Part shown: one piece after another, positions 25,887 to 38,000 of the stretch
How positions within the stretch are numbered: position 1 is the first letter of the stretch
How the letters are laid out: each line of letters starts with the position of its first letter
Assembly (NCBI GenBank): GCA_028534125.1
Contig: CM052838.1
Span: 65,658,001-65,722,000 of the forward strand
Direction: 5' to 3'
Source of the DNA: Lama glama
Taxonomy: Eukaryota
Length of the DNA stretch: 64,000 nucleotides
The notes under the pieces: model-generated
What the model was told of the DNA's origin: nothing
What the model saw: only the letters and a program-made list of their open reading frames with translations
Database searches by the model: none
Made by a program: the position numbers and the translations under genes

Positions 25887-26011
25887 TCACACGATGGCCT
25901 GGTGCGGCAGCCCGTAGAGGACCGTGTTGAGGGCGATGGGGAGCCGCTCTGCGCCCTGCAGCTGTGGCCGGAGCAGCGCCAGCTTGTCCTTCCAGGTCTG
26001 CAGAGGCTCGT
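25887..26011 (-). CDS. CFAP46: CFAP46 last coding exon
   Basis: ccccacag|AC; phase 1; [43 protein letters not shown] at 25889-25887; not in the ORF track. Confidence 0.85.
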
Positions 26012-35000: not shown

Positions 35001-38000
35001 CTTTGAAACAGGAGTTTGTGAGGCCGAGAGGACGTTAAGCTTCTTTCCAGGGTGTGCTCGGCATCCACGGGACACGCGGCACATGGCAGGTGCTCCCGAG
35101 ATGTCTCTGAATGACCAGCGCCTCGAAAGACGTGGCGAATCTGGTAACTGTTTTTTGACAAGACTTACATTCTTTTATGGTGAATGTCATTTAAATATTC
35201 CCACGTAAGATCCAAGCGTCAGTGTGGCGCTCACCTGTCTCCTCTGTGCGGAGCCGCGTCCACAGCATCTGGAGAGAAAATTCTCGAGACACGGAGGAGA
35301 TCGTCCCTTCACCGAACACGGGGAGCCCTTCGAGTGGCAGCTCCAGGAGGGGCCGGTCCACGGCCAGCACGATGCTGTCCGCGACCTCGGGCTGCGCTGT
35401 GGGCGGAGCACGTGGCTGAGGTCACCGGCACGGGGACGGGCCGACGGCCCAGGGTCTGCCCGGCACTGCCGAGGCCGTCTGGCTGACGGAGTCTGGACTC
35501 GGCATGGCTCCCAGACATGGCCAAGCCCCCTGGGGGGCAGGTGCTTGATCTGGTGGTGCGGCCAGGTCACAGCATGGACCTGGACAGAGCCCGGTCACAA
35601 GGACGTCGGGTCCTGGGTGCTTCCTGAGGCAGGTCCTGGAGGTGCCATCGCGCCTCCTGACCAGGGAGCCCTTTCAAAGGACAAAGATCTGTGCCAGATC
35701 CCCTCCCTGAGGGTCCAGAGGGGCCGTGGCCTCTGACAGGGCAGCTCCTGCAGAGGAAGGGCAGTGGCAGCTTCTCCCGTGACCACAGAGAAGCCCTGCT
35801 CCGGTGATGGGTGAAACCCGAGACACTTCAATGGAACTGACTGTGTTTACAAAGTAAACACAAGTTACCTAAAACCCAGCATGGGTCTTCATCTGGGGAG
35901 TTTTGGGGGCATAATCTCAGGTCACAAAAGTGGCCCCAGGTTGTCAGGTTCGTGACAGCTGCACAAGCTCAGCTCTGAGGGACCCAGAGGTCGCTAGGAC
36001 CCGCGTGCCACGCTCCGCCGGGACCCACGCTCCCCCGGGATCCACGCGCTCCACCGGGACCCACGCTCTGCTGGGATCCACGCGCCAGCTCTGAGCTTTG
36101 CTGGCACCTTGGAGACGGCGGCAGCTCAGCCCTGTAGGGGGCGCTTCTGCCCAGGACGGCCAGAACAGGAGCATTTCATCTTTTATTTGGGAGTCAACAA
36201 AGTGCTAATCTGGGAGCCCCTTGGCCCTCCTGTCATCTGATGTGTGCTCAGGGTGGTGATGGCCATGTCACCATGGTTTCTGTCCACGAGGGGCCGCCCG
36301 GGTGCCCGGAAGGGCAGGGCATCTGAATTGGAGTGGCTTGCAGCACACCCAGGGCGCTGGTCAGTGGCCGCGGTCCCTACGCCGGGGGGAGGCCCAGCCA
36401 CAAGTGCGGGGCAGATGGCTCTGTGGTCAGCGGGCCTGGGCCCCACTCACCCTGGGGCAGGGACGCCTTCCTCTCCTTGTCTTTGCCCTTGGGTTTTCCC
36501 GGATCTGCCACAGCTGCGGGGATGTGTGCTCTGAAAGGCAAAGGCGCCAAAATCCACGGCTCACTGCTGGGGGCTGTCTTGCCGGGACGGGGGCAGAGGC
36601 CCGGCACGGACGCGGACGCACTGAGTCAGGCTGCTCTGACCCACGGGGAAACCTGGGAACTGCGCGTGTCTGTCCGCTCCGCCTCCTTTCCTGTCGGAAA
36701 CAGGTCAGAGGGGCCGGATCGAAGCCCCTCGGCCCTGTTCTCTCCCACCCACACCCGGACCAGCGGCTCAGAGGCCGGTGGGGACGCCTCCAGGAGAGGT
36801 TTTCAGCAGAGGCAGACGGGACGGACCCGGGCTTCTGTTCCCCAAGAGCCTGTGCACGTCTCCCGTCCCGTGAACCGTGCGGTTCAGCCCAGACAGGAGC
36901 TCATTCAGCACACGGCGCCGGCATCTGAGATGCAGGTTTCCGGGCAAGAGCAGCATCGGAGGAAACAGCTCTGACCTTCACACGCTCACAGCCGGTCACT
37001 CGGCTAGCCCGGGCCTCCGGGGGTCAGAGTCGGCTTTCAGGCCGAGCCCCCCGCCCGCCCCCATCCCTGCGCACCACAACGCCTGCCACTCCCCGCACCT
37101 GTGGCACCTGCTGGCCAGCGAGGCGACGTAGCCCCCCTGTCTGCTCTGAGGCGGCACCCCCACCCCGAGACTTGGGCAATGGTTAGCACCCGCCCTCACT
37201 GCACCCCCAGTGCAGGGGGCTCCCTCTCCCTAATCACTTCAGGAACCAGCCCCTCGGCAGGTACCGGGCTTCTGGGGGGCAGCTGAGCAGTGGGAGCAGC
37301 GGCTTCAGGTACTCCTCCATGGCCTTCATGACCTCGGCGAATCGCTGCAGTGAGCGTCCTTCCTTCTCAAGGTGCACGCTTTCTGGGTCCTTCTCGGCCA
37401 AAATGACAACCCCGATCAGAAGGTGTCTGGGGCCCACGGAGAATCCTCAGGCGGCGGGGGGAACGGACAAGGCCCTGCAGGCCTGGCCCCCAGGGAAGGC
37501 CCCGCTTGGCAGCATGGGGCTCCCGAGGCCCCTGTGGATCATGCTCCTCCCTTTCACCTGCCCACGGCCCTGAGAGGCCCCACACCCCCACCCCACTGCA
37601 CCCCTCTGCTGGCATCACAGAGGCTCTGCACCAGACCCGGCTCGAGGATTCCAGGAAGAGCTGGCCCCGAGCCCCGTGCTGAGAGCGCGGCCTGGGTGCC
37701 CAGCACGCCTGGGGGCCAGAAGGCCACCCGGGGCGGTGGGCCTCACCTAGCTCTCCCCACCCCGCCCCATCCCACAGCCCCGGCACCAGGCTCAGGGCCT
37801 CACCAAGCCTGAGCTCAGGGCCACGTCCTCACTGGACGCCTCGGCCTGGGTCTGCTCTCGGAACTGCTGGGCGCTGGCCAGCAGGCAGGAGAGGGCGGCC
37901 GGGCTCACAGCCGTCCGCGCCACCTTGCAGGAGCCTGTGGAGGCAGACACCGCTGCTGTCTCCACACACGGCCTTGCAGGCCATCCTTTGGGGCAGAGAG

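Follow-up and report, generated by a model that had tools for sequence, protein, structure and literature searches.

The C-terminus of the ciliary protein CFAP46 in Lama glama: a probable separase-type module that has lost its catalytic dyad

We analysed a stretch of 64,000 nucleotides from the genome of Lama glama (GCA_028534125.1, contig CM052838.1, positions 65,658,001 to 65,722,000; this whole stretch is called the window, and coordinates are counted from its first base), the minus strand of which encodes the C-terminal part of CFAP46, a protein of the ciliary central apparatus. Joining of exons and comparison with orthologs placed a region resembling separase, the enzyme responsible for parting sister chromosomes, at the C-terminus of this gene. 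Ten minus-strand exons from 35396 to 25887 join into a single open frame of 322 amino acids closed by a TGA stop at 25889-25887; all ten carry an AG acceptor, the nine internal ones a GT donor, and the phases are compatible. The spliced tail shares 73-75 % identity with four CFAP46 tails from mammals and 41-45 % with those of a marsupial and a lizard, while exon 35396-35235 is 96 % identical to Camelus CFAP46. Six more exons (43793 to 36451) lengthen the open frame to 551-552 amino acids, and in tblastn searches proteins named CFAP46 tiled the exons from 62890 to 25887. The 5′ end of the gene lies outside the window; TPR_CFAP46_N (PF25439) was detected in 9 of 12 long homologs, in eight of them above its cut-off, which identifies those homologs as CFAP46, and an ortholog tail matched the mouse CFAP46 chain 9ijj_A at E 8e-139. 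Across the C-terminal region, the tblastn coverage, exon identities and spliced tail thus make the window gene an ortholog of the C1d protein CFAP46/FAP46/TTC40 (PDB 7N6G, 7SQC, 9IJJ; PF25439 at the N-terminus).

Relationship of the CFAP46 tail to separase

A sequence-only reading of the window had reported separase motifs in their native order along the spliced tail. We located ten of them on the minus strand from 35373 to 25905, of which FMVDP and PSQAEW cross exon junctions and appear after splicing; the two proteins share their order all the way from the first strand to the YGLP at the end. Aligning CFAP46 with separase alignments, all of which were vertebrate, hhalign returned a probability of 99.0 and E 7.5e-18 over 195 columns. 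At E<1e-3 a hidden Markov model (HMM) of vertebrate separases detected 17 of 144 CFAP46 orthologs but only 1 of 144 reversed-sequence controls; the 144 orthologs are the new proteins among the best 150 of 828 matches in a profile search of proteins clustered at 50 %. Because of these two results the common motif order, as judged from sequence profiles, is more than chance would give. A longer hhalign alignment (probability 98.4, 416 columns) began in the last helices of the solenoid and extended across both separase subdomains, including the upstream one. The originally proposed extent, 25887..35396, is real in this respect, but the match begins about 4 kb further upstream, at about 39290.

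The Pfam family Peptidase_C50 (PF03568, curated cut-off 27.8 bits) matched 36 of 63 diverse CFAP46 orthologs at E<=0.01 and all 15 amniote tails examined at E<=0.1; scores above the curated cut-off occurred in 2 of 14 proteins of one set and 5 of 12 long ones of another. When the window was searched exon by exon, one exon of six matched (35396-35235, E 0.002, under the cut-off) and five gave nothing. An HMM of 63 CFAP46 sequences searched against PDB sequences retrieved mouse CFAP46 and Chlamydomonas FAP46 and then ten separase rows at E 1.1e-10 to 5.9e-8, with everything else at 0.18 or above. Deep alignments were required for this: phmmer with a single sequence against the PDB retrieved CFAP46/FAP46 and no separase, an amniote-only CFAP46 profile got no further than E 0.4, and hhalign against one single separase exon gave no match. 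This blindness of single-sequence searches, and a pairwise identity to separase of just 12-18 % in structural alignments, speak for a mere generic alpha/beta sandwich with chance motifs. We give that explanation practically no weight, as it is refuted by profile E-values of 1e-10 to 7.5e-18 obtained from sequence alone, by the reversed controls and by structural Z scores of 20-34 for separase against less than 7 for unrelated folds.

To compare structures we utilized AlphaFold2 models of CFAP46 orthologs rather than of the protein encoded in the window. Model 1 is ortholog P0006 (320 amino acids, 75 % identical to the window tail) with a predicted local distance difference test score (pLDDT) of 87.8, and model 2 is ortholog P0005 (1181 amino acids) with a predicted template-modelling score of 0.86. 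With model 1, Foldseek retrieved 14 separase chains (E 4e-10 to 2.3e-7), the CHAT proteins starting at 1.2e-4. In a VIA comparison with 48,161 representatives the top match of model 1 was Chaetomium separase 5fc2_B (Z 20.4, root-mean-square deviation (rmsd) 3.8 Å, 235 residues), with FAP46 level at 20.2, followed by gingipains (Z 16.9 and 15.7), Csx29 (12.7), and legumain, metacaspases and caspases (6-9). Apart from the two CFAP46 chains and an unnamed protein from structural genomics, ranks 1-33 were all clan CD enzymes. Model 2 is entirely helical over residues 17-709, after which come a beta-sheet with two long helices and then a caspase core; against the isolated separase protease domain 5fby_A (residues 1686-2216) it reached Z 33.6 with an rmsd of 3.0 Å over 334 residues. 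The CFAP46 C-terminus is therefore predicted, on ortholog models, to be a two-subdomain, caspase-fold module of separase type behind a helical solenoid, the layout of a solenoid plus pseudo-protease that had been suggested from the letters. Separase (ESPL1; family C50; PDB 5FBY, 5FC2, 5MZ6, 5U1T, 7NJ1) likewise carries such a module at its C-terminal end behind a helical solenoid, although the helical insertion within its first subdomain has no counterpart in CFAP46 in the longer hhalign alignment.

TPR profiles match the alpha-helical solenoid N-terminal to the protease-like domain in CFAP46 orthologs, and model 2 aligned with the TPR repeats of LGN at a Z of about 17. No rigid superposition of the CFAP46 and separase solenoids was obtained (rmsd mostly 9-14 Å; 5.1 Å over 502 residues for C. 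elegans), and common descent of the two is supported by hhalign as far as the last helices only. Deposited cryo-electron microscopy (cryo-EM) chains of FAP46 and CFAP46 cover the same region (ranges to 2765 and 2636).

The sequence-only reading had left the fold between separase and CHAT, and the clan CD assignment holds at the level of both profiles and structures. An unlikely alternative keeps the fold and the dead site but derives them from a bacterial TPR-CHAT protein that was domesticated independently, instead of from a duplication of separase. TPR-CHAT proteases (Csx29/Craspase, DdvA, SAVED-CHAT; PF12770, cut-off 24 bits) share the solenoid and the two-subdomain caspase-fold layout, with Z scores of 11-13 for the core and 20-24 for the long model (Csx29 entries 19.6-23.9 with model 2). 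The Pfam CHAT profile matches 7 of 63 orthologs at E<=0.01 (best 1.3e-5; P0101 scores 22.1 bits, under the cut-off), and by count the ESM Atlas matches are mostly bacterial CHAT clusters (21 of 30 and 22 of 30). These proteins, with roles in bacterial defence and signalling, nevertheless match CFAP46 less well than separase does at every level: 7 against 36 of 63 orthologs in Pfam, 1.2e-4 against 4e-10 in Foldseek and 23.9 against 33.6 in VIA. Separase clusters rank first in the Atlas for the core and the long tail (0.96 and 0.95), with 0.96 over 173 features compared to 0.92 over 113 for CHAT. No CHAT protein appeared at E<=10 in the CFAP46 HMM-to-PDB search, although the PDB is poor in CHAT proteins and a ranking is not a phylogeny.

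The former active site and its surroundings

The separase triplet G-H-G aligns to G-M-E in CFAP46 with both HMMER and hhalign, confirming the earlier placement of the catalytic His on Met. F-G-C aligns to D-L-T in both profile alignments, so that the catalytic Cys falls on Thr. The earlier reading had the right site and the right conclusion that the Cys is lost, but its register was one residue early and put the Cys on Leu; we rejected that pairing of GCS with DLT in favour of FGC with DLT, as found in both hhalign alignments. We then took the 106 ortholog rows, from the best 150 of 828 matches, that cover both the His and Cys motifs (partial rows were dropped). None of the 106 has His at the His site, three have Cys at the Cys site and none has both, protists included; with a mammal-rich set added the counts are 0 and 3 of 134. 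As a control, GHG..GCSS is kept in 100 of 104 separase matches, and this genome's own separase exon (L001:1501-1671, minus strand, C6) has an intact His and Cys. The residue following the His site is Gly in 37 of 106 rows, which supports the register of Met on His. We also considered a His on the Tyr two places earlier, where His occurs in 3 of 106 rows, and rejected it, because the Gly before the site is aligned by HMMER as well as by hhalign, and G-x-G is found in 37 of 106 rows. No relocated His was found, no column of the 322-residue tail exceeding 30 % His.

A third catalytic feature appears to have gone as well. D2151 of Chaetomium separase binds the P1 Arg (PMC9729208), and the equivalent position would map to eight residues after the Trp of the NLW motif, where the window protein has Ala; the commonest residues there among 122 rows are Ala (47), Arg (17) and Ser (11), with Asp outside the top six. 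In addition, the distance from the Cys site to the Trp of NxW is 46 residues in 92 of 110 CFAP46 rows compared to 33 in 53 of 54 matched separases. The extra stretch is a conserved insert, predicted to be helical, with conserved Ser, Arg, Asp, Lys and Glu; conservation around the old site reaches 87 % for D190, 81 % for S197, 77 % for R200, 79 % for D205, 82 % for K208, 90 % for E216 and 87 % for N245.

Taken by its sequence, the CFAP46 domain is likely to be catalytically dead. It is very unlikely, in our view, that a non-canonical enzyme activity has been kept via conserved polar residues near the old site, or that a few protists still have a proteolytic form of the protein. Such residues do exist (the Asp two before the Cys position and the Ser, Arg, Asp, Lys and Glu of the insert, 77-90 % conserved), a Cys occupies the Cys position in Chlamydomonas FAP46 and in 3 of 106 rows, and the rhizarian row P0140 has a displaced His together with a Cys. 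His is however found at the His site in no row, the Chlamydomonas residue being Val, S197 and D205 vary among mammals, and the conserved helix charges are equally compatible with salt bridges or an interface. Moreover, FAP46 is present in the lattice as a stoichiometric subunit, with one molecule every 32 nm (PMC9113940).

The loss of catalysis also sets CFAP46 apart from the TPR-CHAT proteases, which retain a His-Cys dyad (PMC9729208); no CHAT-type dyad is seen in the ortholog rows. By the models and these rows CFAP46 has the caspase/hemoglobinase fold of clan CD with the dyad lost family-wide, which makes it a clan CD pseudo-protease. An inactive caspase fold is used for binding or support in c-FLIP, the N-terminal caspase-like domain of Raptor and the pseudo-protease domain of separase. 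Structural matches to such pseudo-proteases are far weaker (c-FLIP 3h13, Z 6.2; Raptor 5wbi, Z 5.9). Unlike them, CFAP46 retains the whole two-subdomain module of separase type, in which case both halves would be dead.

Two individual sequences deserve mention. Chlamydomonas FAP46 (7n6g_1N, residues about 2620-2655) combines Cys at the catalytic position with Val in place of His, possibly a remnant, and in P0140 the His lies two places before the His site and the Cys one place after the Cys site.

Origin and possible role in the C1d projection

Twenty of the divergent matches were looked up by name; they include Diphylleia, Mesostigma, Globisporangium, Bigelowiella, Mataza, a choanoflagellate, Priapulus, Oikopleura and Heterobilharzia. 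The CFAP46 orthologs with a name come from animals, a choanoflagellate, Diphylleia, Mesostigma, an oomycete and two rhizarians, in addition to Chlamydomonas. Two reports describe absences, with no clear CFAP46 homolog in Trypanosoma brucei according to a preprint (PMC12154619) and loss of the gene in some birds (PMC10445033). The dead site across these groups suggests that catalysis was lost very early, and CFAP46 may have arisen by duplication of a separase-type ancestor ahead of the split of the main eukaryotic lineages. With three catalytic features failing, the tail falls outside the active C50 family; its build is that of a separase, and most likely it is a dead paralog. A PF03568 search of this genome returned the separase locus only and missed CFAP46 itself, so further paralogs may exist.

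Published work places CFAP46 in the central apparatus, as opposed to the chromosomal setting of separase. In C1d, FAP46 occurs as a subunit once every 32 nm and is clustered by FAP221, a protein of the rachis (PMC9113940); mouse CFAP46 touches SPAG6, LRRC43 and CFAP74 (PMC12297659). Loss of CFAP46/FAP46 removes or damages C1d, which is absent from a fap46 null (PMC6548120, PMC7999657). In a patient with primary ciliary dyskinesia (PCD), in whom a nonsense allele close to the start is combined with a truncation at residue 2429, CFAP46 was undetectable in the axoneme (PMC11651342). The Glu-Met junction and phase of window exon 29679-29577 match the acceptor hit by the human allele c.7286-2A>G, which would then truncate CFAP46 within the separase-like core and remove both dyad-site strands.

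We favour, with a probability of roughly 0.8, the reading that CFAP46 ends in a separase-type module that has lost its dyad and that serves the C1d projection as a rigid docking module without cutting activity. This module would provide a rigid cap and a docking surface, its old active-site face remodelled by the helical insert after the Cys-site strand, and this face may now help to pack the fold or bind a neighbour instead of cutting. The scaffold role in the central apparatus raised by the sequence-only reading is consistent with the C1d data, while the binding role of the domain, its partner and interface included, is something we infer.

Several further points weigh against this reading. 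The window's own tail scores only 4.4 bits with the vertebrate separase HMM and its exon 35396-35235 stays below the Pfam cut-off at 17.7 bits; 3 of 12 long orthologs have no C50 match at E<=0.01, and a fourth has TPR matches only. The term paralog reflects similarity ranks obtained with vertebrate separases, the residue registers come from profile alignments instead of residue-level superposition, and the dyad census covers the best 150 of 828 matches. The patient allele may act via mRNA decay or protein instability rather than through loss of a binding site. More tentatively, and with the balance leaning against it, CFAP46 could be an unrecognised second separase-family protein of eukaryotes, of the age of the motile cilium, that still grips an extended chain in the manner of separase; a central-apparatus partner, such as the FAP221 rachis, would follow the solenoid and lie in the dead groove as securin does on separase.

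Parts of this picture are already known, namely the gene, its location, dead clan CD domains as a kind and the C50 flags in Pfam: 6 of 23 and 10 of 31 CFAP46 database matches come with a precomputed PF03568 annotation, so that the link exists at the database level. Our literature searches, which did not cover Gui 2022, the likeliest place, found no published statement of a CFAP46-separase link. The words separase, caspase and CHAT are absent from the main texts of Han 2022 (PMC9113940) and Zhu 2025 (PMC12297659), as are peptidase and CHAT from that of Wohlgemuth 2024, where CFAP46 is described with two coiled coils. A 2021 review gives, in the part available, no domain for FAP46, and other descriptions, likewise available in part, are helical or coiled-coil and name no separase-like domain.

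To our knowledge, separase is usually regarded as the sole eukaryotic member of family C50. If the docking-module reading is true, a conserved dead relative in the central apparatus would link the way a ciliary projection arose with the protease of chromosome segregation, and would place a gene duplication in early eukaryotes. It would also supply a fold and a residue map for a C-terminus that lacks annotation in a gene of human ciliary dyskinesia, making variants there interpretable, and would single out one surface for inspection in existing cryo-EM models.

Exon map and splicing

The exons of the module and the residues discussed above are collected in Table 1.

Table 1 CFAP46 exons and site codons in the window (in order of transcription)
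Feature	Position	Strand	Basis
Exon, final alpha-solenoid helices ahead of the separase-like module	43623..43793	-	tblastn, splice sites, open frame; helical in ortholog model; within 416-column hhalign match
Exon, start of subdomain equivalent to the separase pseudo-protease domain, first strand	39193..39290	-	strand 714-721 in ortholog model; aligned to separase
Exon, pseudo-protease-domain-like strands	38688..38764	-	splice sites, ortholog model
Exon, strand and long helix of pseudo-protease-domain-like part	37804..37934	-	splice sites, ortholog model
Exon, second long helix	37265..37392	-	splice sites; acceptor 37392 or 37389, both in frame
Exon, basic linker of low confidence	36451..36530	-	pLDDT 46-55 over ortholog residues 831-870
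Exon with 20-residue motif common to separase	35235..35396	-	Pfam C50 17.7 bits, E 0.002, exon alone
Exon, basic low-confidence loop	30351..30421	-	splicing, ortholog model
Exon leading into caspase-fold core	30188..30248	-	splicing
Exon, strand with conserved DP at its end (separase NP)	30082..30117	-	splicing, hhalign, ortholog rows
Exon with WAGHLG (separase WxGxxG)	29577..29679	-	splicing, hhalign; acceptor probably the site of human PCD allele c.7286-2A>G
Exon with His-site strand	28795..28907	-	splicing, hhalign
Met codon at separase catalytic-His position	28850..28852	-	HMMER and hhalign alignments
Exon with Cys-site strand and beginning of conserved helical insert	27679..27760	-	splicing, ortholog model
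Conserved Asp codon two codons ahead of Cys-site Thr	27737-27735	-	Asp in 93/106 ortholog rows
Thr codon at separase catalytic-Cys position	27729..27731	-	profile alignments
Exon with LLSLVG..NQW	26910..27046	-	splicing, hhalign
Ala codon where separase has the putative P1-Arg-binding Asp	26937-26935	-	mapped by inference
Exon, late caspase-fold helices	26748..26828	-	splicing, ortholog model
Last coding exon, terminal YGLP strand and stop codon	25887..26011	-	splicing; Gly invariant in 89/89 rows

Certain exons showed indications of alternative or erroneous splicing. Skipping of the 137-nt exon 27046-26910 would shift the frame and lead to a stop after 21 further residues; shifted tails of this kind occur in two deposited mammalian proteins (P0008, P0033), in which the final strands of the fold would be lost. 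The human tail probably differs too, the 2715-residue reference having 286 residues after Glu2429 compared to 208 in primate P0004. At 37394-37389 two in-frame AG acceptors lie three bases apart on the minus strand, of which the first fits the Camelus protein by one extra Lys. The 70-nt minus-strand intron 30187-30118 is mis-spliced or read through in several deposited gene models (P0001, P0017, P0029). Elsewhere in the window, coding pieces at about 430-526 on the plus strand and 4700-6200 on the minus strand resemble INPP5A and NKX6-2, which we take to be the usual neighbours of CFAP46.

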